A DNA stretch of 64,000 nucleotides. It comes from Elsinoe ampelina. Lineage: Eukaryota. The position numbers were made by a program, and so were the translations under genes. Shown here in pieces: positions 22,370-57,030 of the stretch. Each line of letters starts with the position of its first letter. The stretch's first letter is position 1. The notes beneath the pieces were generated by a model. The model ran no database searches, was not told the origin of the DNA, and saw only the letters and a program-made list of their open reading frames with translations. The stretch is from assembly GCA_010093995.1 (NCBI GenBank), contig ML992502.1, forward strand, positions 2,426,728 through 2,490,727. The letters run 5' to 3'.

Positions 22370-23953
22370 ATGTCTCCCCCACACTTTAACTCCAAGGCCT
22401 TGGGGCTATTGCTATTCCAGTCAGGCACAGCAGTGCTTGGCTATGCTACAGCAAATGCGAGTTGTTCGGACCTAGCGACCTCGCTGCAGATACCGGATGT
22501 TCAGGTCCTCATTGCAGAGTCAGTTCCTGCAGGTACCAACCTGACCTTCCCAACAGTCCCAGCGGATTGCACCCGGAGCCAGGTCACCCTTGTTGATATC
22601 TGCCGGGTTCGCATGCTGCTTACCACTGGACCAACCAGCAATGTCACACTTGAGCATTGGCTGCCTGCCGACTGGAACGGACGGTTTCTCGCCACCGGCA
22701 ATGGAGGCACGAACGGCTGCGTCGACTTCAACGCCATCAACTACGGCACTGTCCAGGGATTCGCCGCCATTGGGACCAACAACGGGCACGACGGCTTCTC
22801 AGGTGTACCCTTCCTGAACAACCCAGGGGTAATCGAGGACTTTGTCTACAGAGCTGTGCATAGTTCTGCATCCATCGGCAAGCAAGTCATTCAGACGTAC
22901 TATAAACAACCTGCATGCAAATCCTATTACCTGGGCTGTTCTACTGGAGGCAGGCAGGGCTTCAAGGAAGCCCAGTCGTTCCCTGATGACTTTGACGGCA
23001 TCGTAGCAGGCGCTCCTGCTATCGCATACAACGACCTGAACTATCAGAGCGGTAGCGTCTTCATCGCCACCGGGCCCCCCGGATCGCCATCGTTCCTGTC
23101 CACAGCTCAGTGGTCTGCTGTCGTCAATGCTTCCATCGCCCAATGCGATCTTCTCGACAACGTAGCCGATGGAATTCTCGAAGACCCCGACCTCTGCCAG
23201 CCCCGATTCGAAGCCCTGCTCTGTGCTGCCAATCAGACCAACTCGACCACCTGTCTCACCCCAACCCAAGTCGAGACTGCCCGCCGCATCTACAGTCCCA
23301 TCTACGGCCCACAAGGTCAGCTCATCTTCCCCCGCATTCAACCCGGCGTCGGCTCCGCCCTCGTCTACGGCGGTCCCTTCTCCTACTCCACCGACTGGTG
23401 GCGCTACGTTGTCTACAACGACACCACCTGGGACCCCAGCACCCTCGGCCTGGACGACTGGGTCGCCGAAACCGCCGTCAACCCCTTCAACATCCAGACC
23501 TTCCTCGGCGACCTCTCCGCCGTCCGCGACCGCGGCACCAAAGTCCTGCACTACCACGGCCTGCAAGACGGCCTAATCAGCTCCGAGAACTCGCGCCGCT
23601 ACTACGAAAACGTCCAGCGCGCCATGGGCGCCACCTACGACGAACTAGACGACTTCTACCGCTACTTCCGCATTTCCGGCATGGGTCATTGCAGCGGCGG
23701 GTCGGGCGCGAGTGTCATTGGGAATGGCAAGACGAACACGTGGACGGATGACGCGGATGGAAACGTGTTGCAAGCGATGGTGAGGTGGGTCGAGGAGGGT
23801 GTGGCGCCCGAGACGATCGAAGGGGCCAAGTTTAAGACGGGTGGGAATGGGACTGAGGTTGAGTATACGAGGAGGCATTGTAGGTGGCCCAGGAGGAATG
23901 TGTGGGATGGTGAGGGGGATGTGGCGGATCCTGATAGTTGGAACTGCGAGTAG
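22370..23953 (+). CDS. Tannase / feruloyl esterase family secreted hydrolase
   Basis: WNGRFLATGNGG, SYYLGCSTGGRQG (catalytic Ser), FDGIVAGAPA, KVLHYHGLQDGLI, GMGHCSGG, WVEEGVAPETI. Intronless. ATG 22370 precedes a signal-peptide-like stretch; an alternative in-frame ATG lies at 22286. Confidence 0.95.
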   Translation: MSPPHFNSKALGLLLFQSGTAVLGYATANASCSDLATSLQIPDVQVLIAESVPAGTNLTFPTVPADCTRSQVTLVDICRVRMLLTTGPTSNVTLEHWLPADWNGRFLATGNGGTNGCVDFNAINYGTVQGFAAIGTNNGHDGFSGVPFLNNPGVIEDFVYRAVHSSASIGKQVIQTYYKQPACKSYYLGCSTGGRQGFKEAQSFPDDFDGIVAGAPAIAYNDLNYQSGSVFIATGPPGSPSFLSTAQWSAVVNASIAQCDLLDNVADGILEDPDLCQPRFEALLCAANQTNSTTCLTPTQVETARRIYSPIYGPQGQLIFPRIQPGVGSALVYGGPFSYSTDWWRYVVYNDTTWDPSTLGLDDWVAETAVNPFNIQTFLGDLSAVRDRGTKVLHYHGLQDGLISSENSRRYYENVQRAMGATYDELDDFYRYFRISGMGHCSGGSGASVIGNGKTNTWTDDADGNVLQAMVRWVEEGVAPETIEGAKFKTGGNGTEVEYTRRHCRWPRRNVWDGEGDVADPDSWNCE

Positions 23954-24333: not shown

Positions 24334-25063
24334 TCATTTCTTCGAATCAAGTCTCGCCTTTCTCCCCCTTGCAGACCTAGCGGACCTTCGTAACGTCACC
24401 TTTTCAAAAGCTGTCGGTGCAATCGCCACAGATACAATTTTAGAAAACTCCAAGCGCCTGCTGCTGCCGCGCTGGGAAGCCCCCGAGCTTTCGGAATTTC
24501 GGCATCTTCGCGATCATTCTCGCTCGCCGTCTTTCATCCCTTTCCTTCATCTTAGCCTGGATGAATGGCAGTGCCACGCTGGAAAGACGCCAAAGAGACG
24601 CGCAATCTGTGCCATGCGTCATCCCAGAGATGTATCCCTCCTCTCCACGCCCGTGGATCTCAATCGTCATCATGCGGTCCGAATGCGCACTCTCCAGAGC
24701 TCGACTCTCCTCCTTCAGAGCGAGGAGAAATCCCGTGACCCTTTCGTGGAGTGGTCTCGAGGTGTCGGCCTTCAAGGCGTCTCTGAAGCGGAACATGAAT
24801 TCATGGTCGCGGTAGACGTTGATGGTCCGGCGGTTGTTCTCGCGGATCATCTTGTTGATCTCGACTTGACTGACGCCCATATTGACTATTTCGGCGCTGA
24901 CGCCAGGACCTCTGTTGTACTTCTGGCGGAACCGTTGACTGGTCTGGTAATTGTCAATATTGGTCGCGGTATCTGGGCTCCGAGCGGCACGACTTATGGT
25001 TGGTTCCTCGCCGGACTGAGGTGCTGGGGATACGCTCGTTCTTGTTGGCTCGAAGCTTGCCAT
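24334..25063 (-). pseudogene. Orphan partner gene copy P1 (NRR/RRSAR family), apparently frameshifted near the 3' end
   Basis: ORF from MASFEP (25063) has MGVSQVEINKMIRENNRRTINVYRDHEF...LWRLS and stops at 24440. The family tail VTLRRSARSARGRKAR continues in the adjacent frame (RRSAR at 24390-24376, stop 24336-24334). Confidence 0.7.
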
Positions 25064-25674: not shown

Positions 25675-27034
25675 TTGTTTGCTCTCTGCGCCCGGCAAGA
25701 ATCAGAGTGCTATACTGTCGGCTCGGGTGAACATTGCAGCATCCGAGTTTGCAACGCCGCTGACATGAATCCGCTGACGAGCTCTTACTGGATGCATCTG
25801 GCGCAGATAACCTTTGTGGTTCCCCCTTCAGGACCGTGCTACGTTCAATCTCAGGGACAACGGGGATTCGGCCTGAGACACGCCTCAAAAGACAAGTCCA
25901 TTCTCCCGGGCAAAGACTTGCAGTGGTACGAATTGTCGCCAGGGGACTACGTGATGACATTCAGCCACGGTCTCGAGATGTCTATGAAGGTCTTGTCCCC
26001 CTCGCACGAGACGGACTCATTGCAATCAGACCCAGCCCGTCCGACAAAGAGGAGCTTCGCCTTGCCAAGGACACGCACTTGACGAAGATGGGCCTGTCGG
26101 ATGCTGCCCAAACTACCATTATTCGAGCTACGCGCTGTCCGAAAGAGGAATTGTCATTATTCGGCGGCGAGACGTCTGCAGAAGCAGTGAGGACCATCGG
26201 AGGCGTGGTCATCTTCCGCAAGTACGGTGACAAAGACGACCTTGAGAAAAAACAAGCAATCCAACAAGAGATCGACATCATGCGGAATCTCTCCCATGTA
26301 AGTGTGAATGACTCTTGGACGATGAAGATCACTAACGTTGCGACTAGCCCAACATCGTTTCCTTGTTCGAAGGCCCCGTTCCAGAGGACATTGAAGCCCC
26401 CGTCCTTGCTCTTGAGTTCCTCGATGGCATGTCTCTCGATAAGTTCTCCACGGACAAGGTCTCGACGCTGCCACCCCTGCTTGTTCATCGTCTTCTCCGA
26501 ACCGTACCGTCGGTGTTGGTATACATGCTCGAGCAAGAGATCGAGCATAATGACATCCGTATTGAGAATATCGTCCTGTGCACCCAGGGATTTAAACTTA
26601 TCGACTTTGGTCTGGCTAGACGTGGTGCCGACCGGTACGTTTGGAGGGACGGGGTTTCTCGTTATGCTCCGCCTGAGCTTCAGAAAAGGAGCGAGGCGCT
26701 CGTGTATGGAGCAAGAGACGTCATGGCCTTTGGCATCATTATCTTCTGGGCTTTGCGCTGGATGAATACACCGATGGGGGAGTCTTGGATTGTGTCTCAA
26801 GCCATTGACCCAGGCCCGGAGCACGATGACATGGCCACGTGGTTAGCGCATGTCCGCTCGAGCAGCATTGAGCTACCGTCGAGTCTGAACCAGCTGACGG
26901 GTCTCTTCGAGGAGAAGCCAGAGCTGCGCATGACGGCAGTGACTCTTGACCAGATCGCCCAAAAAGTGGAGAAGGCATGCATTCCGGCTGCTATCGAGAT
27001 GGGCGAGCTGGTGCGTGCCAATTACGAGTGGTAA
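25675..27034 (+). CDS. Kinase-like gene copy K1 (Ser/Thr kinase fold; 5' end uncertain, possibly frameshifted from an FHA-like N-terminal region)
   Basis: EIDIMRNLSH|PNIVSL joined across intron 26298-26347; LALEFLDG, HNDIRIENIV, KLIDFGLA, RYAPPE, RDVMAFG. The catalytic-loop Lys is replaced by Arg and the Gly-rich loop is degenerate. Confidence 0.75.
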
Positions 27035-29575: not shown

Positions 29576-30833
<1,258 letters not shown>

Positions 30834-34044: not shown

Positions 34045-35413
34045 CTATAGCGATACAGACGACTTCATCAGTACCTTCTTCCTCGCAAACGACGCCCTGA
34101 TGTTCGGCGCCATCTCGACAGCCTGTCGCACCGACCCGAGCGCTGTCTTCTTCGCGGCCACCAACAACTCATTCGGACTCATTCTGTTCACGGCCTTCGC
34201 AGCCGCAGCCTGCTTGATATGAATATCAAACATCCCCAAGCTCTCGCACTGCCACACAGTCTCTTCCACAGTGGCTTGATGCAGATCTCTCTGGTCGTCC
34301 TCAGTACGCAGCAGCCCGAGATCAAAAGGATGATGGCGTGGCAATGCCTTCCAGCCCAAAGCGAAGAGAAACGTGGGCATGAAAGCATACGTATCGCGCT
34401 TCCCAGCGTGCAAAAGTGGGTCCACGGGATCCAGCACATCGAGCGCGACATAGGCCGCTGTGCCCGAGAAGCGAGGCCCCGTCCGACGTCCTCGAGTGGC
34501 GAGGCCGAAGTCGATGAGCTTGACCTGGGTGTCATTGATGAGGATGTTCTCGGGTTTGACATCGTTGTGCTCGACGCGTTGCTCCACGAGATAGCACAGG
34601 ACTTCTGGGAAGGCTTGTAAGAGGGCGAAGACTCGATCGGCGGGGAGGGTGCAGAAGTTTTGGGGGTCGCGGTAGGCGGAGAGGTCTTTTTGGCCGAGGA
34701 ATTCGGTGTAGAGAGCGGTTGAGATGGGGTCGATGGCTGGCCAGGGGGTCATGAGCTGGACGATGTTCTTCTGGGTTGTATGTGTCAGTCTTTCCTACTC
34801 TGAGGGTGCATTATGGTATACTGACGTGCGACAGCTTCGTCAGCATCTTTTTCTCCTCCTGAATGTACTCTTTGGCTTTCGTATTCCGACCTTCCTTCTC
34901 GACGATCGTTCTGTCGCCTTCTCGGAACACTCGGACGATAGCATTAGAGTTGATTGCGATGATGGAATTGCTGACTCGAGGCCGATCAGAGCTGTCGGAC
35001 TTCTCAACTTCTGCTGGGAAGCCAGTCGTGGAGATTGTTCGAGGTGGAAGTGCAGGAAGTCCTGCCTTTAGTCGATCTTGCTCTCCCGCCCCCTCGACTT
35101 TATCTCCTTCTGCTGATACAGACGACTTTTCTTGCTCATCATGTGTTTCCTGAGGTGCTTGGGATGTTTGAGCCTCTGCAGTCGAATTATCTTTTGCATC
35201 TACTGCCGCGCCAATGGCGTGAATGGTCGAGGCTTCGGAGCTGCCAGCAGATTGTGAAAGACCCCGAGTCGTCTGGCCCTCTCTGACCGAGGACACTTCT
35301 TCCAAGGATCTTGATAGATGGGTTTCTGTTCTTGCGAGAGCCATGGTGGTTGAGTTTGAAAATCGGATGTGAAAGCCGTCGTGGCAGAATGTGCAACCAT
35401 GGAACTTATTCAA
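34045..35413 (-). CDS. Kinase-like gene copy K3 (start uncertain)
   Basis: EEKKMLTKLSH|KNIVQL across intron 34771-34825; LYTEFLG, HNDVKPENILI, KLIDFGLA, GTAAYVALD, KRDTYAF. Confidence 0.82.
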
Positions 35414-35653
35414 GGGAAGACATCGTGTTGTTTTGTCTCGTGCTACACCTTCCTTGTGGTCGGCTCCATTCGTTCAGAAAAGATCTTTGGGCAATCTAGC
35501 CGCTGGTGTCACCGACGAGGAGCCCGGCCACAGTTTGGCCAGTGTCGAGGTGGCGTTGAGCTTGTACGACCTGAACACCGCAATCCTTCATGGCCTTGTC
35601 TTGTCTCGAAGAACCGCTCACTTCATTTCATACAAGCTATCGAGTAAGACGAG

Positions 35654-36290
35654 ATGTCAGGTACCAAGATTCATGCAGTTCGGCATCCCTGGGAGGTCCC
35701 AGAGGTGACTCCAGAGCCCGACTTCTTCGATGACGACCGGCCCGTTCGTGCGCTCAGTCCCACGAGTCGGTCTAACAGCTGATTCTGAACAGGACCTCGC
35801 ACGGCCTACGACAAGATTGCTGTTGTCCAGGATGGGCATCGACAAAGCTCGTCAACAGCAGCTGTCACTCACCCACAACCGCCGCGTCGTCAAGATCCGC
35901 AGCGACGGCGAATTTCTCTACGAACTCCACAAATACATCGCCCGTCATCGATGCAAGAACATCGAGCGCCTCATAGGCCGCTACTTGATGCGACAAGAGC
36001 AAAGAGACAAAGAACTAGAGGCACAGCACAAAGAAAGCATGATCCCCGTCATGGTGCTCGGGGTAAGAGAGCCGAGTGGTCGAGTCTTCTTCAATGCTGC
36101 AACGCATTGTCGGACGATGTGGTTCTTGTCGAAGCTTGCGGAAGATTTGTTGGAGGAGAAGAAGGCGGTGAGGGTGGCGGAGATGCATGCCACGATCAGG
36201 GAGGAGATTGCGAAGTTCAAGGAGCCGCAATTACGGAGGTCGGCCCGGATCAGGGGGAGGATGGAGAGGAGCGGAAGGCAGGGGCGGTGA
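35654..36290 (+). CDS. Orphan partner gene copy P2 (NRR/RRSAR family)
   Basis: Exon 1 35654-35743 (MSGTKIHAVRHPWEVPEVTPEP...), intron 35744-35792, exon 2 with MGIDKARQQQLSLTHNRRVVKIRSDGEF...MWFLS...LRRSARIR. Confidence 0.82.
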
Positions 36291-36398
36291 AGACTGCAGC
36301 ATCATCTTCTGATATCGTCTGTTGAGCCTCGTACATGATCTGTTTACAACCAAGTCCGGGCTGATGATAGAGATTGATATACCTTCCCAACCAGCCTG

Positions 36399-37616
36399 TT
36401 ACTCCCCCTGCTGGGAGCCAAAGAGCTCCGACTCGTCCAGCTTCAATTTCTTTCTGATCTTGTGTGCAGCGTTCATAGCCTCATCAACTGCATCGAGTGT
36501 CCGCTCCCCAAGCCTATACACATCACAGCAAATGTCAAACGGTTTGGATCTCTTCGCAGGGTCCATGCGTAGGGTCTTGGTGATTACGGAGCAGCTCGGT
36601 GGCATTTCAAAACCAATACGCTCGGCAGTGTGGGTGTACTCCAGCATTTTCTGCCTCTCGATCTCATTGCCGGTGCACGCGTCGGCAGCAAGAAACTCAT
36701 CACCTTCCGGGAATCGAATGATCCGACACGCCACGGTCATGACCACACCAAAGGCATAGCTATCTCGAGCGCCTGGATAAGCCATCGGATCCTGGTTCCG
36801 AAGCGTCTCTGCAGGCATGTACGGTGCGGTGTCGCACATCATCGCTCCAGTTTGTGATCCGACTGTCGCGCAACCGAAGTCGATCAAAATTGGCTTGCCC
36901 TTCGAGATGAGAATGTTGTCCGGCTTAATATCATTGTGAGTGATACCTTGCTTGAATAGCTCAAAAAGGACGTCGGGGAACTCTCCCAGAAGCGCGGCAA
37001 CCACGTGTCTCTCGAGCGTCGAGAATTTGTCCTCGTCGACATAGTAGCTCATGTCGCAAGCATCGTCAAACAGTTCGAGTACCACTGAGTCGCCCCTTGG
37101 ATCTGGTTCCTGACCAATGAAGACCTTGATGATAGATTTCTGCGCTTCTCAACATAATCATCCGCAGTGGGATGCATGACATATGCTTACATGGTCCAAT
37201 CTTACCAGAGCCTCCCTTTCGCGCCTGAGAGCCGCAAGACCTTCTTTCCCAGCACAGAACTTCACCGCTCGGACGTGATTGTCCAGCTTCACCTTGACGA
37301 TCATGGAGTTCTGCGTGTTGGCCACCACCTGCGGATATGCACGAGCTAGATCCCTCCACCTCGGCTCCATGTCGTCTTCGGAAGAACTTGCACTCTGGCC
37401 AGGCGAGGCCGAAGACCGTGTACTTGTCAATTGTCCAGATCCATCTTTAGCCCAACAGATGTCCGCTCCAGAAGATTCGAATGGACTTGGGAGCCGCTGT
37501 CGGCGTCTTTTGGACAGTGTCTCGGTGTCGCGGACTCGTTCGTCATGGGTCGGCGAGTTGCGTATGTCCAAGAGCCATGGATCGACATAGAGAGTCTTTT
37601 CTGAGGAGCTCTGCAT
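36399..37616 (-). CDS. Kinase-like gene copy K4
   Basis: VRAVKF...REREALVRLDH|KSIIKV across intron 37140-37190; VVLELFD, HNDIKPDNILI, LIDFGCA, TAPYMPAE, RDSYAFG, DPAKR. Confidence 0.85.
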
Positions 37617-37962
37617 CTCTCAATTCCTTTCACTGTCTTCGATGTAGCGTATGAATATTTCGTGGTCGTTTCCCTCGACTATGCTCCGTTATCAAAAGAA
37701 GGAGTCACGATTTGATGGAATGAGTGCGTGACTCTGCATCCATCTCGAGTTCAAATACTGTCCCCATCGTGCCCACAGGATCACTTTTCATGGTGTACAC
37801 GAGCTGAGGCGAGTGGCTGAGAAACATCCATGTAGCCGCTTGTGTAACCACAACACAATACCCCACCAGCAATCTCATCTTTGTGCTCAACTGGAGAATC
37901 AAGAACCTCGTCCGCATGAGTGAATCCCATAATGCCTGCAAGGTTTGAAACCTTTCGCAAAG

Positions 37963-38657
37963 ATGAACATACGAATTGCTGGTACAGCTTTTGTACTGCC
38001 ACGTCCAAGTCCAGAGCTGTGGATGGGGATAAGTCGGTCAGATGTAAGGGACAACTGGGCCAAAAATATGGCAAGTACTAAATTTCTGAACAGAATGGCC
38101 GTCGATCAGGGCGAACTACGTTGCGAAGCAGTCTTGAAGAGATTGGTCTGTCTGGAAGCCGCCTGGACGAGCTACTTCTTAGTCACAATCGCCGTGTGGT
38201 AAAAAACCAGTCTGATCGCAGATTTTCAAGACGTCTGCTTGCTCATCTTCGAATGAGGGACGGTAATCTCGAGCAGCATATCGGAGAGTTTCTCATGCAG
38301 CAAGAGCAGCAGCACGCCACAGCTGAGAAATTACACGAGAACAGAATTCTGAGTGTGATGGCTTATGGACGCTCGTACAAGCCGGAGATATCCAACACAG
38401 ATCTATCCACAACTACCACGGCATTATGGGAAGTCTCAGATTTGGCCGATGCTATTCTTCGGGAGAAGGAGGAAGAAAGTGTCCGAGCATTTCGCGAGGA
38501 GATGTACCCCGAGGAGGATGCCGTCGCTACCGTGGAGGTGGAGCCTGAAGCTGTACCTACGCGACCGAGACACAAGGTCAAGAGACGTCGGAGGTGCAAA
38601 CAACCGCCAATCAGAAGGTCTGCTCGTCTTCGTGAGCAGGCGAGGAAGAAGAGTTGA
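37963..38657 (+). CDS. Orphan partner gene copy P3 (NRR/RRSAR family)
   Basis: Exon 1 37963-38043 (MNIRIAGTAFVLPRPSPELWMGISRSD), intron 38044-38093, exon 2 with IGLSGSRLDELLLSHNRRVVKNQSDRRF...LWEVS...PIRRSARLR. Confidence 0.85.
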
Positions 38658-39192
38658 CAGCGAGTGCACCAGATGTATCGAGGATCTCATTCAGCGTTGC
38701 GCCAAAGCTTGCTATTCAGGAGTTGTATAGTCCTCGTAGAGCCATTTGAGGCGTAGAATCGCTCTACTATAGGAGTCGTAGGAGTTCACGAAAAAGTCCT
38801 CGAGCACCATAACTGTGCAGCACCCTTTTTCTTGTTGACTTGGTCTGCATCTTGTGTCTTTGAGAAGCTCCAGGTCAGGTCTATCGCAAGAAGTATGTAT
38901 TTTGTGGATTCTGAAGTAATGTAGCAAGCTGAGCGAGGGATCTGTCGATTTTGCAGCATCGTGCTTGACCGGCGCCAGCCTGAAATACGTCGATACCATC
39001 GTTTACTTCTTCGCAAGAGTAATAGCACAAGGATATCCCGACTGGCTGAGAGCATCCCAGAAGCGCTTGTGTAACACCAGCCGCCTTGTGACACCGCGCC
39101 CAGGAAAGCAGCTTGGGTACAAGAACACAGTCCCGCCACATTTCCTTGAGCGTCGCCATTCCAACCTCATGATCAAGCTGAGCCATTGAGCT

Positions 39193-39894
39193 ATGCCCGA
39201 AATGAGTATAAAAATTGCAGGTGCTACATTGGAAGTTCCGCGGCCTAGCCCGGAGGCCAAACTAGGCATCTTAAAGGCGGTTGTAAGTGTATCAAATCCC
39301 ACGTAGTAATTAGTCCGTAACACAGTGTAGCATCATGGTCGAGTTGCAAAGCGACCGACTTTGCGAGAACGATTGGAGGCGCGAGGAGTGACCAGGGCTC
39401 GTCTGAAGGAACTTGTTCTTGGTCAAAATCGCAGGGTAGTGAAAAAGCAGTCAGACCGTCAATTCAGCTGGCAGTTGTTGAGGTACCTCGAGGCCAGAGA
39501 CGGCAATCTTGAGCAACATATCAACGGCTACCTCATGCAGCTGGAGAGAAGCCAGGCCGAAGCAGAACGAAAACATGAAGAAAGGACTCTCATCGTATCG
39601 ATATATGGAGGCCAGATCGTCCCGGAATGTACAGCCGTGAATTGTCAGACCACCACAAGTGCGCTCTGGGCGGTGTCTAAGATAGCATACATCATGCTGA
39701 AAGAGAGACACGAGGAAGAGGTCAGGCAGGGTAGAATGAGACTGTACCCAGAAGAATTTGCGGTGCCGACAGTTGAGACGGAAATTGCTCCACAGACTCT
39801 GGCCAAGCAGCCGAAGGTCCGAAAAATCGAGAGGCAATCTCCGGTCAGAAGATCACTTCGGTTGCGAGAGAAGCAACAAAAACGACAGAATTGA
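39193..39894 (+). CDS. Orphan partner gene copy P4 (NRR/RRSAR family)
   Basis: Exon 1 39193/39202-39282 (MSIKIAGATLEVPRPSPEAKLGILKAV), intron 39283-39330, exon 2 with RGVTRARLKELVLGQNRRVVKKQSDRQF...LWAVS...PVRRSLRLR. Confidence 0.85.
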
Positions 39895-40011
39895 TTAAGA
39901 GAAAGCGTCTAGTAGCAATGCTAGGACGGGATGGTTCTTCCATCAGCCATCGTCTCGAGCCGGAGATATTTCGCTGCGGCTTATCAGTGCTGCTGGAACG
40001 TGGCGTATGGT

Positions 40012-40803
40012 TTAGTCGTCTCCGGAAGCAGCGACTGTAACACGTATGGTCGCCGCCATCGCTTGGGCTTTCTTGATGTTGCTGACTCGGATAGACTTGA
40101 CAGCCTCGCAAAGCTCCTCTGGGCTCATCCTGTCTTTAGCTTCTATCTCGAATGCATCCTGAAGAGGGATGTTGAAAATTGCCAAGTTTTCGGCTTCGTT
40201 CCAGCCGTCTTGTACAAACTTGAGCAATTTCTCGCCTTCCGGGCCACTGGAACCAAGTGAGAGAACATCGTAGGGCGGGTGTTCGGGGTCCTTCCTCCAT
40301 CCCAGCGCAAAGAGAAACGTGTAAGTCAAGGCGAAGATGTCGCGATGGTCAGGGTATAGAAGCGGATCTCTATTCTGCAGGATCTCAAGAGGCACATAGC
40401 CTGGTGTTCCGCCGTGATATGGTCCCTTCTGGTGGCCCTTGGCAGACAAGCCGAAGTCAGTCAGCTTGATGGAGTTCGGACCGATGATGATGTTGGCTGG
40501 CTTAATATCATTATGCTCAATTCCATGCTTGACTGGATACTTGATAACATCAGGCATCTCATCTACCATAGTGTGGACCCGTTCTGGATCTGCGTTGCAG
40601 TACCCCTTGGAGTCGACATGCCGGGAGAGATCCAGACCGTCTAGATGCTCCAGTAGCAGCGAGAATGCATTTCTGTCAAGCGCTCCTTCCCAGGACGGTC
40701 GGCCGAGTACTACCAAAGCAGGAATCACGTGACCAGAGCTGGTTGTGGGGGCTGTACGACTTGAGCACGAAGCTCGATTTGCGAATGGCTCCTCGACAGC
40801 CAT
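40012..40803 (-). pseudogene. Kinase-like gene copy K5, open C-lobe but N-lobe apparently missing
   Basis: LLLEHLDG, HNDIKPANIII, KLTDFGLS, GGTPGYVPLE, RDIFAL, DRMSPEEL. There is no alphaC/LxH|xNI exon or conserved intron, and the first ATG is only ~35 bp from the upstream-most ATG of the divergent P5 gene. Confidence 0.7.
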
Positions 40804-40838
40804 TATACCGACAAGAGCTTAGCCTGCTGTACCTACCC

Positions 40839-41511
40839 ATGGGCAGCGTTAGGACGATGGAGACGATGGCTGTTCGTTCACCGTGGCCGGTCCCAAAGAT
40901 GAGCCCGGAGCCGCGAAGTCGCAGATCGCAAGCGGAGGTGAGAGCGAAGCACACCTGCTACCGGACAGTCAATACTGACAGCTCAGCAGTATCCAGGGTG
41001 TGAAGGTGGCGACCCGAATCTAGAACAGCTTCTGTCAACACTTGGGGTGGATGAGGGTCGCCGACGTCAGCTCTGCATGACGCACAATCGCCGTGTCGTA
41101 AAGATCCAAGAGGACAGGCATTTCTACTATGGACTATATCAGCATCTTACCAGGCATCCGCGAGTCCAACTAGAGCAAGGCATATCGAGATTTCTGATGG
41201 ACAAGGAGGAGGAAAACAGGAGAATGGAGACCGCTTTCGAGCAGAGGATAAGCAAGGTTCTTGCGCTGAGCGCTGTGTCCCACAAAGGCAACGGCATGAG
41301 CGGATTCGATACGCAATGTCGGCTGCTATGGGCGATGTCAGAGGTGTTGCATTCGCTACTGAAGGTCGAGAGCGAGAAGAAGCAGAGCGCCTGGAGGAGC
41401 AGGATCGAGCGAGAATTGGCAAAGCATGAAGCTAAGGCAGCGGCAGAAAAGCATGTTGGGGTCAGGCGATCTGCTCGTATCAGAGCACGGAAGATCGCAA
41501 ACAAGAGATAA
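40839..41511 (+). CDS. Orphan partner gene copy P5 (NRR/RRSAR family)
   Basis: Exon 1 to 40937 (..MAVRSPWPVPKMSPEPRSRRSQAE; possible ATGs at 40839, 40857, 40866), intron 40938-40986/40989, exon 2 with LGVDEGRRRQLCMTHNRRVVKIQEDRHF...LWAMS...VRRSARIR. Confidence 0.82.
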
Positions 41512-42342
41512 ATCAATGGTGTCGCTGTAGAGGAAAAGTTGAAGATTCACACATTCTGAAGTTGCGCAACCGGAGCAACTCAGCGAGTACGTCATAGACA
41601 CTTGCTTGAATGTCACGTGATTTCTGATGACCTAGCGCCGGCTCTGTCGCCCTTGACTCCATCATGCTTCGAGGGATAGTTTAATCATCCACGACTCTTC
41701 AGCTCCAGCCCATCTCTTCATAAATCCCATCGATCGCCACACCTCCCGCCTCGTCCGTCTTCCAGACCGACCCTGTCTCACCATCCGCCGAATCCGAGAC
41801 CTCCCACCCCACTCTGCAACCGGTGACCGACCTGTCCAACCCACCACATGGCATGTTTCAAGCCTACCACGGTCATGACCTGTCCATCTTGAGATCCAGA
41901 CGACCAAGACGTCACGACTCTGTTTGACATAGAACATGCATCGAAAGGAAGAGGTTGCTCCCTCCCAAACAGGTCCGGAGCGCCACGTGCTTCAGGGGAG
42001 TCGCAGGAGACGACTTGGGGTCTTGGGATTGGGATGGAAAGTAGACCTCGGCTTACGATTATGAGTCTACGAACGAGGTATTGATGCTGTAGCAATGATG
42101 CCCATGAGATCTAAAGTGTGATTATGGGGGATTATGTATTAGCAATTGAAGCATTAACGGAATTAAGTGGTATCTAGCATCTGTACAGCAATTCAGTGAC
42201 AGGAATTTTGCCCTCTCCATCCTTCCCGCAGACCAGGGGTGAGCATCTCTTGAGAGTGCATACAGTCTATATCCCTCCAACCCAACCATGCAATGCAATT
42301 GAATGCCCATCACCACCCTCAAGCACAAGCAGAGACTCAACC

Positions 42343-43470
42343 TCATGCCTCCTCCACAGCCTTCACCACCTCTCCCCACCCCACACCCCACCCCTCATAC
42401 CCCCTCTCCACCGTAACAAACACGCCCTCGACACCCTCCTCCTTCGCCCTCCTCACCACCTCGGCCTCCTCCCCCCTCCCTCTCGGACAAGAATGCACCA
42501 TCACGGTACTCTTCCTCCTGACCTCCCTCCCGCCCTCAAACCCATCCAAGCCCCTATCCACCCACGCCCCGTACCCATCCTCAAAACACGTCACCTTGTC
42601 CGCAAACTCATAATACCTCTCGGCAACCGGACACCCAGGATTCGTCCACACCAAACACCCCCGGCTCAGACTCCGTCGGATATAAGCGTGCAAACTCGAC
42701 ATGTACCCCAAGTGCCTCTCATGATGGGGCGCCTCGTCGACGAAAATCCCGGAGATGTGGATGTCGACTGCGCCCTCGTCCAGGTCCCTCCTCCGCTGGG
42801 CGCCCGCGAGCGTCACTCCGCTATCCATCGGCCGTAGTGGGGAAGACACCTTCATCGCCGACGCGGACGTGGGCGGGATGGTGGGCGAGGGAGGCAGGGA
42901 TTGCTTGTTCCAGCGCTCGTACCGGCGGACGTCTTCGAAGACGTCTTCGAGAGAACGCTCTGCCCACTTGACGTGCACGTACCCGAAGAGCGTGGCGTTG
43001 GGGTACGTGTTCAGCCGCGTGACTTGGCGGACGTAGTTGGCATCCGGGGTGTCGCCGCCTGGCCCATTGGCGGGATTGATGATGATGTCGAATTGTACGG
43101 TGGGGTGTTGGGAGAGGGCGGTGAAGAGGGGGTCCCAGGAGGTGGAGGTCGGGTAGATGTACAGCGGCACCTGGAGGCGGAGTTTGCGGAGGGGTTTGGG
43201 GGAGCGGGATGTGCGGGACGCCATGGAAGAGGAGGTGTCGGAGGGAGGGGAGAGGCGGGAGGTGGAGCTGGGGGATTTTTGGCGTAAGTTGTCGCGGGAT
43301 TTGGTGCGGCGTTGGTAGGTAGGGGAGTAGAAGCCTGAGACGGTGGTTGTGGTTGTGGTTTTGGGTTTGTAGCCTTGGGGACCGTCGAAGGCGGATTGTT
43401 TGGTGGGCACCGGTGGGGGACAGCCGGAGAGGCGGTCGTGGAGGTCGCGGAAGAAGGCGCGGACAGGCAT
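42343..43470 (-). CDS. sph3: Spherulin-4 family (GH135) glycoside hydrolase, Sph3-like
   Basis: VPLYIYP...WDPL...FDIIINPANGPG...PDANY, FGYVH, ISGIFVDEAP, VWTNPG, VTCFE. Adjacent to the GAG synthase. Confidence 0.85.
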   Translation of the reverse strand: MPVRAFFRDLHDRLSGCPPPVPTKQSAFDGPQGYKPKTTTTTTVSGFYSPTYQRRTKSRDNLRQKSPSSTSRLSPPSDTSSSMASRTSRSPKPLRKLRLQVPLYIYPTSTSWDPLFTALSQHPTVQFDIIINPANGPGGDTPDANYVRQVTRLNTYPNATLFGYVHVKWAERSLEDVFEDVRRYERWNKQSLPPSPTIPPTSASAMKVSSPLRPMDSGVTLAGAQRRRDLDEGAVDIHISGIFVDEAPHHERHLGYMSSLHAYIRRSLSRGCLVWTNPGCPVAERYYEFADKVTCFEDGYGAWVDRGLDGFEGGREVRRKSTVMVHSCPRGRGEEAEVVRRAKEEGVEGVFVTVERGYEGWGVGWGEVVKAVEEA

Positions 43471-45329
43471 GGCTGGAAGTTGGCCGCCGAGAAGAGTAAT
43501 GTATGTATCCAGGGTTGATGACGGTCAGTAGTGGAAGCAGGGACGGGGCCACGTGTTGGGCGTCACTGGCGGGCGATCAGCGTCACTACTTTGTGGCTAG
43601 TAATAATAAGAAATATAGATGGCAAGTCCCAAGTGGCAGGCGACAGAAGTATATACAGAAACATGTCAAGCTGAGTTCGTGGAAGAGAAGGCGCACGGGT
43701 CAGACGGTGCGTGGTCAGAGGGGCAGGGCCAAAAGGCAAAGCTTGATCTCGGGTTTCGGATTCAATACAAGAACTGAGAAGGGGTAAGGATAGACAGTTC
43801 AGTGGAGCACGAGCAGGAGCAGAGCAGGAGCACGAGCGTCGGGAGCGTCAGGAGCGGGCTTCAGCTCGGAATGGGCCCGTGGTGCATGACAGTGGTTACT
43901 AGGTATGACACCAGACCGAGTAGAAGCAAAGTCAGACTGGACTACTAAGTTACTGTCTGTGACCAGCCAAGTAGTGTCGAGGATGATGTTTCTTTTCACA
44001 GTGCTCGAGCTTTGAAACGGTGCCGCTCTTGGGTTCGGCTGGCTTTGAAACGCACCCAAACAGAGGCCAGCTCGTCGTGTTTCTGCCTCGCTTCCTCCAT
44101 CTTTTGCCTATCTTTGTCTCGCATCATTTTACCCAGAATTCACCCACGATGGAGCTCTGTAGCCCGGTTTTCCTCATCCACCATGCCATGCAAATGCCAC
44201 GCCACGCCTCACACATGCTCAATCCATTCTTTCGTCTTCCCATTCCATGCCACGACGATCTACCGCATCTATCGAAAACCCCCCATCCTTCCTGCCCATA
44301 ACATCCACCGCCTCTCGCTTCCCTTCCTTCCCGCCCCTTGCCCTGCGCGACACATCTTCTCTGTTTTCGGTTCCCCTCTGTCCCAAAGTGTAGAGTTCGC
44401 GGGAAAAAATACGACATTGCTTCTGACTTGTCTCCCGAACGAGATGATCACCATTTCCCTCTTTGCATTTATTTCGCGATTGAATTCCGCTGTATCTGCT
44501 GCCCTCGCCCTATTATCCTGTCATTTGCACCGCCTCTGGTGCCACGTGTGGACCACAATTCCATCATTCATTATTGCCTCCGTACAGACCGCTGCCCATC
44601 ATCATCTCACCCTTCCCCTCCCTCCCTCTCCCTTCCTCACCCCTCTCACCCTCCGTCCATCCCGCAACCAAGCACCACTCCCACCCGCCCTGCACGCGCG
44701 ACCTTGCCCGCCCGGCCGCGTAAAAACCACGTTGAGAAAGGGCACATCCCAAACCCACAAACCACGCCCCCCACCGTGCGCATTCTCTTCGCGGGACGGA
44801 AATAGAACACACGCGCCTGCAATAGACTTTTTTTTTTATTTTCTGCCCACGACCCGCTCCACGCTGACGATGGCTGACCCGCTGACGCTGTCTCTCGTCC
44901 AACGGGTCCTACAGTAGTACGGGTGTCGTCCCGCAGATGGCCCGCAGGACGCGAACTGAACTTGCCGGGAGCGTCATTTGCGTCGTACCGCTGGCGACGG
45001 AGGGGGGATTCCTTCCGTCTACTCTTAGGTGGGAGATGAACCTTCCATGGGCTGTCCAAAGAATCTAGTGTGAGTGAACTCGGACAAGGCGCGCAGAGTT
45101 GCTACGAGACAGATCACGATGCACAATGTAAAGTGTGAAGTGTAAACATAATCAAATTACCCTCTACGCTATGCACCTCCCCTGTACAACGCGCGCGTGT
45201 ATTCCACGGCCTCCCCTTTTTAGTGACAAGTAAACCACAACAACAAAGCGACAACTACATGGGATATCAAGCCTGTTCCTTTTTCCCTCCCCTCTATACC
45301 AATACCAATACCAATACTGCACAAACATT

Positions 45330-48300
45330 CTACTTCTCCCCCCCTCCGACCTCAATGTACTCCCCCCTCTCCTCCTCCCCCTGCACCTGCTTCCTCTCCC
45401 TCTTCCCCCTCAACTTCCTCTCGTCAAAATCCTGCCATCTCGGACGCACGGCCTGCTCTTCTTCCGCCGCGACGTCGTAGGCGTACAGTCCGTCGCCGCC
45501 GAACACGCCGCTCGCGCCGGGGTGGGTCTTGCCCGTGAGACCCTTGCGACGGGCCTCGGCCCACTTGCGCTGGATCCAATACATTTGCTCGTGCTCGCGG
45601 AGGTAGCGCTTGCCGTGGAAGCTGCGAAGCACGACGTCGCGCAGCTTGAGCCCGAGGGCTTTGCGGTCCTCGACCTTCTCGTACATGCGCTTGGTGATCC
45701 AGGCTACGTCTTCTGGGGTGAAAGTTTCCGGGAGAGGAGGTGGCTTAACTTCGTCGTGGGTGTAGGCTGTCCAGGGACCCAGCATGGCGAGGAGCGAGAT
45801 CTGGGCACGAGCGAGGGCCTCTGGGTCGTTGGGTGGAACAACTTCGCCGTAGCGCTTGCTTGGGTCGTCTGGGTCGGTGAGCACGAGGGCGGTGGCGCCG
45901 ACTTCGGTGGCTACGATGGGGATACCGGACAGAGCAGCTTCGCCGATAGCCAAGGGAAGACCTTCGGACAGAGACGAATTCATGAACAGCCAGGCATCCT
46001 TAAGCACTTCCTTCGGTGAGCCGAAACCAGCCAGGGTGACCTTGCCAGACATGCCACGAGTGTTGATGAGCGTGGTAGTCTCGAGTGCGTACGAAGGTTG
46101 ACGATCCTGAGCACCATAGACGGTAAGACGGTAGTCAGTGAAGCCAAACTTGTTGATGATGACATCCGCAGCAAGCACAGCATTCTTGACATCCTTGATG
46201 AACTGCACATTCGACAACATGACTGTCGTCGGGAACTTGGTGCGAGTCTCCTTGACTGGCTGGAAGGCGTCCATGTTACCGATACCGTTGACGATGGGAT
46301 CGATCTTGCGAGCGAATTGCTTCTTGCTGACACGCATGCCCTGATCAGTTCCGAGATCCATCTCCCAGTCGGGGTTGAATACGGACGTGCAAGGAAGGAT
46401 GATATCTGCGTGGGTGTATGCCAGATGGCAAGCGAGCTTGACACCAGACAGAAGCATACCCTGCACTGGAACTGGGAGGAGACACTGAGCTGGAGAGATA
46501 TTGAGACACATCTCACGCCAGAGGATGGCGTGATCCCAGATACCCCAAGTCGTGTTGCGGCGGTACTTGAGAAGGATACCGTAAAGTGAAGAGATACCGT
46601 GGTGGGTGGTCTGGAACACCTTGGGGCAGTCTGCTGGAATTTCCACCGAGTAGATGAAGAAGTAGCAGATGTACAAGTTGAGTGCGTCCCTGAAGTCAGT
46701 CATGCTCGGCGTTTCGATCTCTAGCATATCCTTGATGTTGATGACGTTCTCATCACCATAGTCAATCAGCCACGACTCGATCCATGCTTCCCAGACGGCT
46801 TCGCACTTCCATGTCTTATTGAAGTCGCGAGTCTCAAAGTACCTGTTCATCTTGAGAATGGCGTTGCTGTAGGTCACCAGATCCTCGCGAGTGTAGCGGC
46901 GAGACCGAGCACCCTTGACGAAGCTCTTGAGAAGAGGAATGAAGATGTCCTTGATGTCTTGCTCGATGCGCGTGTCGCTGATGCGCTCGTCGATCTGAGT
47001 CTGGAGAAGATTGTCAAGCAGACCGTGATAAGGCGTCTTACCATCAAGACCCCATAGAGGCAGGACCTTAAGCGAGTTGATGTTGCGTTCGATCTGGTAT
47101 CTGGGGACACCATAATCGTTGGCGCCTTCAGCAAGACAGTGACCACGGATGGTGGTGTGGCCATTGACCAAGTCACGACGACAGTTGGAGACACCACCTG
47201 GGTTGTCGGGCCAGCAGCCATTGTCAGAGAAGATGACTGAGGTGGAAGTGGCGGTATCGCGGTAAGTATCCTCAGGACGAGCAGTGAGACGAGTAGAATC
47301 CTTTGCAAGACCCATCTCGAAGAGATCAGCGGCCTTGATGAGCAGTGGGCAGGTGGCAGAAGTTTCGAGACTCGGTTCGATGGCAGAAATGATCTGCTCC
47401 AGGTTCTCATCGAGAGCATGAGCAGCGCGGAGCAAGTGACCAGCATCGCGAAGGTGCCAGTAGCGCTTGAGGAGTGGCTCCTGCCGCAGAATCATTTCAT
47501 CGAGGAAACAAGCGGAGACGGCGTCAAGGTACGGTGGCTTGGCCCAGGACTTCCAGAGCATGGTTCGCAGTTGAGAAGTTGGCATGCTACGGTAGACGAC
47601 CTTCTTGTCGGTCGACGACCATCCAGATGGCATCGCCTTGATGAGCTTGTGCGAGTTGCGAGAGGAGAGAGAGCTACCAGATGACGGATCAGTCCGGCAA
47701 AGACGTTCGAGCCATGCAATGCGGTGATGAATCAGAAGATCCTCATCCTCAAAGCTGACGTTCTTGGGCTTCTTCATGAACCCGAATTCATCATTGGTGA
47801 TGTGGTCCGGAGCACCCATGAAGGTCTCTGAACCATTCTTTCCCATGATGGTAGTTTCCATCTGTGGATTCTGCGCATGCTTGTAGATCCATCTGACATC
47901 AAAGGTCTGGCCATCTTGAGTAAGGATGACACGCTGCACCTTTTCGGAAGGAGTCCAGTTCTTGACATCCTCAGATCCAGCACGAGGCTTGACAGACCAG
48001 AATACAGACATGGTCATTGGGAAGGAGCTGGTGACACTGGTGATGTTGGCTTGCAGGACCTCAGAGTTACCCTTGGGACGCTTGGAGAAGACATATTCGA
48101 AGGAGAACTCGTGGTTGCCACGGAAGATACGTCCAGATTTGATGCGGCCATACTTGTCGTACAAGCACCGGTACTCGACTCCGTTCTCGACAGTGGTTCT
48201 CGAAGCAGGCCATCTCTTGTGGGACAGCTGCTCGTAGTGGTAGGTCGAAACAGCACCAGAGGCCTCCTCACGACCGTGAAGTCTGTGAGAAGATCCGTAG

Positions 48301-51300
48301 AATGCACGAGCGAGAGGCTTCTTTCCATTAGGCTGTTGCTGAAGATCGCCGTCGAATATGGAGACAACCAAGTTCCTGGCGTTGGTGCGAGAGATAAAAC
48401 CAGTGCGTACATAAAGTGCGGTCTCAACAAGGATGCGGTGACCCTCAAGAGTACGAGGCGCACCATGACGGAGCAAGCTAAGGAAGCGCCCATATGGCTT
48501 CTTCCCGCCAATGACGAAAGTGTAAATCATCAAGTTCTTCATCCACCAGCAGAGCTTCCAGCATTTGAGCAGAGTCCAGAGAATGATCTTGCGGAATGGG
48601 TTGGCTCGGAGTGAATACCAAAGTTCCTTGGGAACATCTGGTCCAGCACCGGAAATGATTGCCACCCACTTTGCAACATCATAGCAGCCACGGACGATCG
48701 AGTTGCCAATCTTGACCAGTATGCTCACGCCCTTCAGGGAACGAGGGAGAGCAGCGCTGAGCTCTGGCTCAACCTCTGGGATCGAAACCATAGAGGGTGT
48801 GCGTGAAGCGATGGCAGGGCGTTCCTTCTGAACGGCAAGAGAAGATCGAAGCTGGTTGATGGCAAGGCCAAGACCGCTGTTGAAACGCTCGACATTGACG
48901 CCATTGTCTACGAGCCATGCGCGGACGATCCAAGTTTGAGGGACTGGCATGCCGAGCACGCGGTAGACAATCATCTTGCGAACATCTTCGGGAAGAGCAG
49001 ACCACTTGGTATTGACGTCGATGTTGAGGGTGAGATTCTTGAGCATCTCTCGGATTGCTCGATGGGTCGTGCTGCACGAGATACCCTGCGAGCCGGCATG
49101 GGAACCGCGAGAGGGTGGAGCAGACTTGAGCTGAACGACACTGTCAATGGAGCTCTTGTTGCGGACATGTCCGTAAGCAGCATTTTTGCGCTTTGGTGCA
49201 CGATGGAAGTAGCCAGTGAGCAAGAAAGTGCCAACAGCAGCTGAGACTGTCGCAGTGTTTAGTGCGATAGCGTAATCGTAGAAGAAGCCGGCGGTCGCAT
49301 CGAGACTGCGAAGGACGATACCAACAGTGAAACCAGCAACGCAGCAGAGGAGAACGGTCAGAACGTGGGCGCGCGCATCCTTTGTGAAGCAGCGGTTGAA
49401 CTGGAAGAAGAGCGCACCAGTGTATCCAGAGATGTAGGTGAAGAAGAGGATGATGGCTTGCTTATCGATGACGAATCCCCAAAGGAGCAAGACTGTGGCA
49501 CCGAGTGTCATTGATAGCAGAGTGACGAGCTCCAGCAAAGCATTGCGGTAATGCTTGCGGCGAACCTGAGCCTCGTTCTCCTTGACTCTATCAAAGTCGG
49601 CCATCTCAGCGATTCTCTCGTTGGACATCTGCGCTAACTTGGGCCAATACTTCTGAAGAACGATATCGACAGAGACGGCGCCGAAGAGGAAGTACAGAAG
49701 ACCAAAGCAGAGTGCGTATTTCGACCGCTGGTCGTAGTAGAGTCCAGCCTGAGGGAAGCGGGCACTCATGACGAGGGATACCCAACGATCCATGAGAGCA
49801 CCGAGGAAGAGACCGACGTTCTGTCCAAGATCATACTTGGAATAGCGGAAAGTGATGAACGGGCTGTGTTCGCGAAGACCGCGAACAAGTTGGCGCTGGT
49901 TACCGAGAGCAAGCTCGAGCTGTACGAACCAAGTGGCAGTGTACATCTCAGGCAGCTCCTGCTCACCAGCCTCCTTCTCCAACAGCCACATTGCGTATGG
50001 ATGACCGACAGCCATCTTCTTGACAAAGTCATCAGCAACCCTGTAGAAGATCTTGACATAGAGCGAACGGCTGTGGTACCGGCTGACTTCAGCCTTGAGG
50101 AGATCTCTGGCTTCCACCGCGAGGAGATTGTCGTCTGTATCTTCATCATCTTCCTCGTCGTCTTCATCGGCGACCTTGGCCTTGAACCAAGCGATGAGAT
50201 CCTTCTCTTTGATGGTGGGCACCTTTGCTTGCCAGGTAGTCCACTCGTGGCAGAGATTGCGGAAAGAAACAATGAGGCAAAACAAGAAGAGGTAAATAAC
50301 AAGCATGTAAATCAGAAGATCGTGGCCGTTAACAAATGTCGTTACAATTGGTGAGATTAAAAGGACTGGCATGCACTTCCACATGGCAATACGTCCAGAT
50401 GTAAGCGGGCTTCCAGGCCTGTGCATGGTGGCGAAGATCCCGAGAACATTGAGGAAAGTGGTAAGTGCGAATAAGTACAAGACGAAGATGAAGCCAGCGA
50501 ACCAGCTATATTGAATGCCAAATGCGATGAAGCCGCAGAATGCGACCACAGACGTGAGCATGAAGGCACCGGAGAATCGCTGGACGAAGAAGTGTGTCAT
50601 GTTGTCGAAGGCATAGTTGAAGAGGTAGAAGCCGCCAGTGCTGCCTACCCATCCAGTGATACCGCCAGTCATGAGTAGGGAGGTCAGAATAGCGTAATTT
50701 GCCATTTCACGGACTTCACGGTCCATGAAGGCTGTGAGGTAGAAACCACGACCAAGGAAGGTGAGAAGAACAACGTCAAAGACGGCAGGGAAGCAGAAGA
50801 TGGAAAGTGCTCCCAGCTTCTGCATCGTGTCGTCGTTGGAGCTCTTCTTCTCCTTGTCGGGTTCGTTGAGCTTGTGACCAGGAATGTCGCCAGGCAGTTC
50901 CTTCATTCTACCGGCTTTGGCCATTGGGTCGTAGCCCTCCTGTTTGTACTTGGGCGAGACGTTGGAGTAAGCCGTGAAGACATCCTTGCCATTGAATGAG
51001 GATGTTGGAGGAGGATTTGCGTCCAGATACTGCCTGTACTTCTCGTAGATGATTTCACCGAGAGTACGTGGGAGCACGCCAAAGTAGATCTGGCATTGCG
51101 ATCCCAACACCCACAGCTCTGCGAAGACACCAGCTTGATCGTGCTGCGACAAGAAGAGCGGACAGCGATCCGTGGTCTCGAGGTAGACATCCTCGAAAGC
51201 GTACTTGCGAAGGGCGCAGAAGAATACGAGCGAGAAAAGATCAGTCGTGGTATCAATCTTCTTGCCGTCGACAGCAGTAGAGTAGACCTGAAGAAGGACT

Positions 51301-56800: not shown

Positions 56801-57030
56801 CTGGGAGTGTGATCACTACGAGAGATGCCTGCCGACGTTTCTTTGGAAGCTGTTTCGGACCCTGAAGTGTGCTACCGATAATGATGCTTTTGTTGTGTGC
56901 CCGATGGCTGGTGTGCTATGCCGAAAAGACGGTGGTCGTGACAATGAGATGGAAAAAAGTGAGAGGCCCCATCTAGGAGGATGAAAAGTGTTCGTGATAC
57001 AGGCCGTTATTGTGTCGTGATGCGTCGAGA

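Follow-up and report, generated by a model that had tools for sequence, protein, structure and literature searches.

Introduction

The closest described counterparts of the proteins considered here are HMGN and Dsup, which dock on the acidic patch of the nucleosome through arginine anchors. In HMGN2, the sequence RRSAR puts R23 and R26 into the acidic patch, and HMGN is described as restricted to vertebrates (PMC12487698). As related there, earlier work proposed that phosphorylation of the serine in the octamer RRSARLSA lowers binding, and a model of phospho-S24 by the authors predicts repulsion from the acidic patch; further unrecognised chromatin binders of this type are expected (PMC12487698). 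Here, we describe a family of small basic proteins with an RRSAR-type tail, encoded in the genome of the grapevine-pathogenic fungus Elsinoe ampelina within a stretch of 64,000 nucleotides (assembly GCA_010093995.1, contig ML992502.1, positions 2,426,728 to 2,490,727 of the forward strand; this whole stretch is called the window hereafter). We refer to the five genes of this family as P1 to P5, and to the protein kinase genes that lie among them as K0 to K3; all paralogues and coordinates given are those within the window.

Hypothetical protein families confined to one lineage are frequent in fungal pathogens, and the P family has two members that are already public, so the core finding is modest. 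A first-pass annotation, made from the DNA letters alone, had recognised P2 to P5 as an orphan family with a hidden first exon; new beyond it are the head-to-head pairing with kinase genes, the RRSAR tail and the context of P1. That P1 to P5 are genuine protein-coding genes, belonging to a family so far encountered in Elsinoe alone, is in our view very probable.

Gene models of the P family

P2 to P5 are encoded on the forward strand in two exons each. P2 comprises exon 1 at 35654..35743 (30 codons, with the motif AVRHPWEVPEVTPEP at 35675-35719), a 49-nt intron at 35744..35792 (GTTCGT..CTAAC..CAG) and exon 2 at 35793..36290 (165 codons plus stop), which carries an RRSARI tail at 36234-36251. 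The first exon of P3 lies at 37963..38043 (27 codons, IAGTAFVLPRPSPE motif at 37975-38016) and is followed by an intron of 50 nt at 38044..38093 (GTAAGG..ACTAA..CAG) and by exon 2 at 38094..38657, with an RRSARL tail at 38613-38630. P4 has exon 1 at 39202..39282 (27 codons, IAGATLEVPRPSPE motif at 39214-39255), a 48-nt intron at 39283..39330 (GTAAGT..GTAAC..TAG), the retention of which creates an in-frame stop, and exon 2 at 39331..39894, with the tail RRSLRL at 39847-39864. Finally, P5 consists of exon 1 at 40866..40937 (24 codons, AVRSPWPVPKMSPEP motif at 40869-40913), an intron at 40938..40986 (49 nt, or 52 nt to 40989 at a CAGCAG tandem acceptor) and exon 2 at 40987..41511, with an RRSARI tail at 41464-41481.

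All four introns have GT donors, AG acceptors and CTAAC/CTGAC-type branch sites, and they are in phase 0 throughout. The two-exon structure proposed in the first-pass annotation is real: all four models were recovered with minor changes in coordinates, exon 1 having 24-30 codons instead of about 27-33, and the short phase-0 introns measuring 48-50 nt, or 52 nt if the P5 tandem acceptor is used. The exon-1 peptides and the helical core pattern quoted at that stage are likewise all present in P2 to P5. In the alignment of the second exons of all four genes (A1), 30 columns are invariant, among them G20, R25, L29, NRRVVK34-39, D43, F46, L50 and E63, and also I66, LM70-71, E74, W115 and S118.

P1 (24440..25063, reverse strand) is a distant paralogue with about 20% identity, a single open reading frame of 207 codons that has neither an intron nor an RRSAR tail. 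At 24930-25000 (reverse strand), near the intron position of P2 to P5, it contains about 21 residues more than its E. batatas orthologue P0005. This extra stretch ends in TTGAC..CAG, and no GT..AG intron there keeps the frame; an exonised intron is one possibility, a difference between the P1 and P0005 models another. A 50-nt intron candidate in P1 (GTCGTG..CAG) was dropped, as on reading the sequence its removal would break the frame.

Conservation and splicing of the first exon

Exon 1 is conserved beyond chance within the pairs P3/P4 and P2/P5. When nucleotide alignments were scored against 200 shuffles, the exon-1 DNA of P3 and P4 was identical at 48 of 77 positions (z 8.0), and that of P2 and P5 at 46 of 70 (z 8.3). 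For the same two pairs, neither the introns (z -0.1 and 0.7) nor the 120 nt upstream (z -0.8 and 0.9) gave an alignment above shuffles. Between the subfamilies, exon-1 DNA is not alignable (z 0.9 and 2.8).

Exon 2 has no Met before the conserved N-terminal part in any of P2 to P5, and in P3 and P4 there is no Met at all ahead of the LM motif; an upstream exon is therefore required. Retention of the intron leads to a stop or a frameshift in P2 to P5. Spliced P2 is identical to its separately annotated orthologue P0003 of E. fawcettii at 96 of 166 residues (58% between these two congeners), from residue 1 and across the junction, and P0003 bears the exon-1 motif AIRHPWLVPEVSPEP. The start of P0004 from E. 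batatas (..LVCPRPSSPPD) resembles exon 1 of P3 and P4.

Splicing was checked in contigs of four runs (X1 to X4), the nature of which is a guess, on 35600-41600. A 4914-nt contig of X1 skips 35744-35792, the P2 intron, exactly from GT to AG. We treat X1 as RNA-derived because of this 49-nt skip and because of its very uneven cover, which swings between 0 and 390 over 6 kb. The same contig reaches 3846 nt further upstream than 35600 and, past the P2 stop, continues for 425 nt, which takes it into K1 at its 3′ end; since it reaches both sides, the transcripts of K3, P2 and K1 overlap or abut in the X1 assembly. X1 is without cover over 38012-38413 (most of P3) and 39218-39820 (most of P4), and X2, a run of a different study, has contigs within exon 2 only, at 38270-38571 in P3 and 39450-39639 in P4. 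This contrast in cover may reflect condition-specific expression, which contigs cannot decide. X4 has no contig on 35600-41600. The junctions that the first-pass annotation had put forward for checking thus fared unequally: that of P2 is spliced in a contig, those of P3 and P4 are without contig cover, and that of P5 was seen unspliced only.

Divergence among P1 to P5 was expressed as proportions of non-synonymous (pN) and synonymous (pS) differences instead of the ratio of the corresponding rates (dN/dS), because pS exceeds 0.75 in 8 of 10 pairs and dS is saturated. pS ranges from 0.73 to 0.86 and pN from 0.35 to 0.60, the latter being lower in 10 of 10 pairs (for pS and pN respectively, 0.84 vs 0.35 in P3/P4 and 0.75 vs 0.46 in P2/P5). 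All five reading frames are intact despite synonymous saturation, and intact frames after such divergence imply purifying selection on P1 to P5. Together with the P2 junction seen in a contig, these results uphold the earlier claim of real genes under selection.

Range, subfamilies and public annotation

A profile built from the five paralogues was compared with 1.84 billion representative proteins at a threshold of E <= 0.001. It gave seven matches, six of them true family members: P0001 (the public model of P5), P0002 (P1), P0003 from E. fawcettii, P0004 and P0005 from E. batatas, and P0007. Apart from E. ampelina itself, the search thus placed relatives of P in E. fawcettii, E. batatas and one further assembly (that of P0007), and nowhere else. 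The seventh match, a Termititenax repeat protein, covers just profile positions 2-31 and was judged spurious. Among the seven matches there were no fused forms of P and no HMGN.

No protein record of P2, P3 or P4 was returned by the profile search or by a word-indexed protein search, the latter negative being limited by the failure of that search to return P0003-P0005 as well; these three genes seem to be without a public protein record. P0001 is 99% identical to P5. It begins at the second Met (codon 12), so that 11 residues conserved with P2 are left out and AVRSPWPVPK is cut off, and it takes the acceptor at 40989, 3 nt downstream (NAGNAG), and so has one Gln fewer. The description of exon 1 as hidden consequently does not apply everywhere, because the exon is already modelled for P5 in P0001 and for orthologues such as P0003. 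Our analysis supplies gene models for P2, P3 and P4 in this pathogen genome and suggests that the public model of P5 be extended at its start, and it illustrates that a conserved micro-exon can be recognised by comparison of paralogues alone.

Two subfamilies, P3/P4 and P2/P5, had been suggested. P3/P4 is well founded (51% identity, tree support 93/98). For P2/P5, exon 1 and 35% identity speak in favour of the pair, but the tree, a polytomy of P2, P5 and (P3, P4), leaves it without resolution.

The orphan status of the family was confirmed by Pfam, PDB sequences and fold searches, all without a match. No Pfam-A family reached its cut-off for P2 to P5, nor was any found for 9 of 9 members at E <= 10 (best E 0.059 in these searches), and a search of PDB sequences (hmmsearch with a 9-member profile) gave 0 matches at E <= 10. 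In a literature search on Elsinoe species-specific genes and kinases, none of the papers listed concerned the P family. The ESM Atlas gave P0003 a top score of 0.85 (phage and bacterial clusters) and exon 2 of P3 one of 0.87 (Ascomycota clusters, two of them with the transposase domain DDE_1 in 15% and 63% of their members). A transposase origin of P is an unsupported lead, since all ESM Atlas scores are below 0.9 and Pfam gave no DDE_1 at E <= 10.

Protein features and predicted structure

P proteins are about 200 amino acids long and basic, with an isoelectric point (pI) of 10.1-10.3 in all five, 1-3 Cys and 9-15 Lys plus Arg among the last 30 residues. Their N-termini (MSGTKIHAVRHPW.., MNIRIAGTAF.., MAVRSPWPVP..), read by eye, have no hydrophobic core. 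With a pI of about 10, few Cys and no hydrophobic N-terminus, they are not classical secreted effectors. The exon-1 peptide contains a conserved hydrophobic-P-x-x-S/T-P-E site, the S/T-P of which is the sole one in P2 and P3; P4 and P5 each have one additional S/T-P.

The AlphaFold2 model of P0003, made with 9 family rows, is all-helical, with a mean predicted local distance difference test score (pLDDT) of 70.6; the part from exon 1 scores about 48-53 and the last residues below 50. The first 75 residues of P2 exon 2 are modelled as a four-helix domain (pLDDT 84.8, predicted template modelling score 0.75). The predicted layout of P is thus a disordered exon-1 peptide, a four-helix domain around NRR, two long helices and a disordered basic tail. 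NRR is invariant in the family, and HNRRVVK in P2 to P5.

Foldseek, one of the checks suggested at the outset, gave no match at E <= 0.001. VIA-align returned best Z values of 6.0 and 5.9 in the two fold searches, with a noise level of 8 to 13 for helical models. Because of the L..L...G(V/I)S..R...L pattern in P, a SAP/HeH-like or helix-turn-helix DNA-binding motif was considered; scores for MerR (Z 5.6 and 4.0) and for sigma factors (Z 4.3) likewise stayed under this level, and no SAP entry was among the best 50 VIA-align rows of either search.

The basic tail ends in LRRSARIR (P2), IRRSARLR (P3), VRRSLRLR (P4) and VRRSARIR (P5), in which R160, R161, S162, R164 and R166 are invariant despite an overall identity of 30-34%. 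Of 9 family members aligned, 6 carry the pattern RR[SA][AL]R[ILW], P0004 (RRAARW) and P0007 (RRSARI) among them. A six-frame translation of the 64 kb contains this pattern five times, and four of these occurrences are the tails of P2 to P5.

Partner kinases

Four of the five P genes form head-to-head pairs with a kinase gene. K0 (26088..27034, forward strand; public P0009) is paired with P1 at 1024 bp from ATG to ATG, K3 (34045..35344, reverse; P0036) with P2 at 309 bp, K1 (36399..37616, reverse), which is also tail-to-tail with P2, with P3 at 346 bp, and K2 (40012..40803, reverse; P0010) with P5 at 62 bp. P and K are not detectably similar to each other (best blastp E-value 0.15).

The K proteins match Pkinase (PF00069) with 57.3 and 54.8 bits (E 2e-15 and 1.2e-14; cut-off 31.7). 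H223, N224, D225, N230, D242, F243 and G244 are shared by 6 of 6 kinase sequences, and the catalytic stretch of K0 reads HNDIRIEN. By sequence, they are eukaryotic protein kinases of the non-RD type (HND), in which HxD, N and DFG are kept. Their glycine loop is degenerate, with no GxGxxG, and K3, K1 and the E. fawcettii kinase P0011 have a VEK/VKV stretch. The kinase tree separates {K2, K3} from {K1, K0} with support of 99/96.

Strong matches to K were confined to E. ampelina, E. fawcettii and E. batatas. The K kinases belong to no named kinase family, given that scores fall from at least 216 bits within Elsinoe to at most 86 bits outside it; the best PDB sequence matches are generic (TSSK6, 8.7e-11; CDK2, 2.2e-10). 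Orthologues of K3 are 47% identical between the congeners E. ampelina and E. fawcettii. In E. fawcettii, this kinase and the P2 orthologue have the consecutive accessions KAF4554723.1 and KAF4554724.1, and we therefore read them as adjacent. No k-mer of 8-10 nt was present in at least 3 of the 5 upstream regions.

Setting of the locus

The GC profile of the window consists of a 22-kb stretch at 27-34%, followed by gene-dense DNA at 51-57%. The AT-rich block (window 1-22000, GC 0.27-0.34) stops sharply near 22 kb and has just 6 stop-to-stop frames of at least 70 amino acids; it looks like repeat-degraded DNA of the kind left by repeat-induced point mutation (RIP). The P/K cluster starts about 2.4 kb from it. 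P1 and K0 are flanked by a tannase/feruloyl esterase gene (22262-23950) and a gene of the glyoxalase/dioxygenase superfamily (29799-30830), and several frames at 27-34 kb gave no Pfam match. Beyond P5, on the reverse strand, Pfam identified a Spherulin4 gene (42346-43524), a frame of 2842 amino acids with a GT4 glycosyltransferase domain (45333-53858), an NAD epimerase/dehydratase gene (57034-58455) and a GH114 gene (61428-62111). This gene group (42346-62111) resembles the fungal galactosaminogalactan cluster.

A possible chromatin-binding role and its alternatives

We propose that the ancestral unit was a P gene with a divergently transcribed, lineage-specific non-RD kinase gene, and that this pair was then duplicated. 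P proteins would be nuclear and would dock on the nucleosome acidic patch via the RRSAR arginine anchors, in the manner of HMGN and Dsup. Phosphorylation would switch either the docking or the stability of P, with the RRS serine (as in HMGN) or the exon-1 S/T-P as candidate sites and the kinase encoded next door as the most likely writer. Our leading explanation, put forward tentatively, is thus that P binds chromatin in the nucleus under the control of the kinase paired with it, where we infer location, docking and control alike. The more specific idea that Elsinoe has an HMGN-like module of its own, in which the P tail anchors to the acidic patch, a dedicated atypical kinase switches this binding by phosphorylating the motif serine or the exon-1 S/T-P, and writer and reader were duplicated and diversified as a pair, is rather unlikely. 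Were the mechanism true, an HMGN/Dsup-type acidic-patch motif would exist outside animals, genetically coupled to its own kinase, in keeping with the idea of many unrecognised chromatin binders in PMC12487698; no fungal case of an RRSAR-type acidic-patch binder was found in a limited literature search. If it fails, P is an uncharacterised orphan family.

A number of observations weigh against a kinase-controlled chromatin binder. The RRSAR motif is only 5-6 residues long. Just the first 6 of the 8 residues of the HMGN octamer RRSARLSA match in P, and HMGN has a trailing SA where the P motif is followed by R/K-E/A/G. P4 has RRSLRL, P0004 of E. batatas has RRAARW and hence no serine, and neither P1 nor P0005 nor P0003 in its public model has RRSAR. 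On the kinase side, P4 is without a partner, and K2 (263 amino acids) starts at about position 70 of the Pkinase profile, so that it has neither the glycine loop nor the beta-3 lysine and may, to judge from its sequence, be inactive or a pseudokinase. In E. batatas, 471 and 612 locus tags separate the sole family kinase found (KVT40_004346) from the P genes (KVT40_003875 and KVT40_003734), 0 of 2 being adjacent; K-P linkage is therefore not universal. The P tree gives no resolved topology to set beside the kinase tree, and the sole contig that spans the P5 intron (40823-41549) is unspliced, with no spliced joint.

The link between K and P could, alternatively, be historical only. A single segment would have been duplicated, K-P adjacency could be a mere legacy of that event, and P would act independently, its RRSAR being a basic patch for nuclear localisation or nucleic-acid binding; we regard this as possible, if well short of probable. 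The missing partner of P4, the truncation of K2, the separate P genes of E. batatas, the absence of any k-mer of at least 8 nt common to at least 3 of the 5 upstream regions and the lack of co-phylogeny in an unresolved P tree all fit such a history, but both partners have been retained in four copies despite synonymous saturation, the pair appears adjacent, by its accessions, in E. fawcettii too, and the P and K families are equally narrow in taxonomic range. P might also act in the cytoplasm, with no role at chromatin, as a substrate or pseudosubstrate of the kinase paired with it or as a regulatory subunit of that kinase, with RRS-A-R or the S/T-P lying in the active site, which we consider unlikely. 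Pairing in 4 of 5 copies and the sole S/T-P of P2 and P3 being in exon 1 would suit it, and RRxS/A is a site of the basophilic-kinase type; the PDB matches of K are, on the other hand, generic, and no cyclin-like or known kinase-regulator fold was among the best 50 rows of either fold search.

Two further readings are improbable. K and P could form a fast-evolving conflict module (allorecognition, or killer and antidote) beside the AT-rich, repeat-degraded block. Both families are lineage-restricted and diverge fast (58% identity for P2 and 47% for K3 between congeners), the copies are in tandem, and the 22-kb low-GC block is only about 2.4 kb away. We nevertheless hold this to be improbable, since no likeness to known incompatibility or drive proteins was found, Pfam gave the kinase domain only, a match to TCAD9 (E 0.0023) fell short of its cut-off and there was no toxin-like domain. 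It is likewise improbable that some copies, chiefly P5, P3 and P4, are relics that have lost their function or are hardly expressed and from which introns are no longer removed. The unspliced contig of P5, the lack of contig cover at the P3 and P4 junctions and the missing public protein records of P2 to P4 point that way, whereas the frames are intact, the splice signals canonical and pN well below a saturated pS; exon 1 has been conserved while intron and upstream DNA were randomised, and rare variants are lost from contigs, so that an absent joint proves nothing.

Comparison with known systems

Among the lineage-specific hypothetical families of plant-pathogenic Dothideomycetes, P is in familiar company: it is likewise limited to a genus, arranged in tandem, fast-evolving, located beside an AT-rich block and labelled hypothetical in public annotation. 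Unlike classical effector candidates, P proteins are neither secreted-looking nor Cys-rich (1-3 Cys, pI about 10), and they are paired with kinases. These K proteins share HxD, N and DFG with the Pkinase (PF00069) family, from which they differ by HND, the degenerate glycine loop and, in K2, the lack of an N-lobe.

For the folded part of P, the N-domain of DNA polymerase alpha p68 (2keb, 4e2i) is comparable as a small four-helix domain of the same size. It appeared in both fold searches (VIA-align Z 5.6 and 5.1, root-mean-square deviation 3.2), with 66 of 75 residues in the alignment and full coverage of the 78-residue target, but identity is 8% and Z is under the noise level. This model-based likeness is no more than a lead, from which neither homology nor function can be concluded.

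The P family is not HMGN. P has no homology to HMGN or Dsup outside the motif, which in P stands at the extreme C-terminus, and a folded helical core is predicted in P where HMGN has none. Because the full octamer, the disordered architecture and homology are all lacking, we propose only that P works like HMGN. Set beside HMGN RRSARLSA and Dsup RRSSRL (PMC12487698), P has P-x-(I/L/V)-RRSAR(L/I); P3 matches RRSARL exactly, whereas P2 and P5 read RRSARI. A serine inside the motif is common to HMGN, Dsup and P2 to P5. As in HMGN and Dsup, the P motif is placed within disordered basic sequence, and a proline precedes RR by 2-3 residues.

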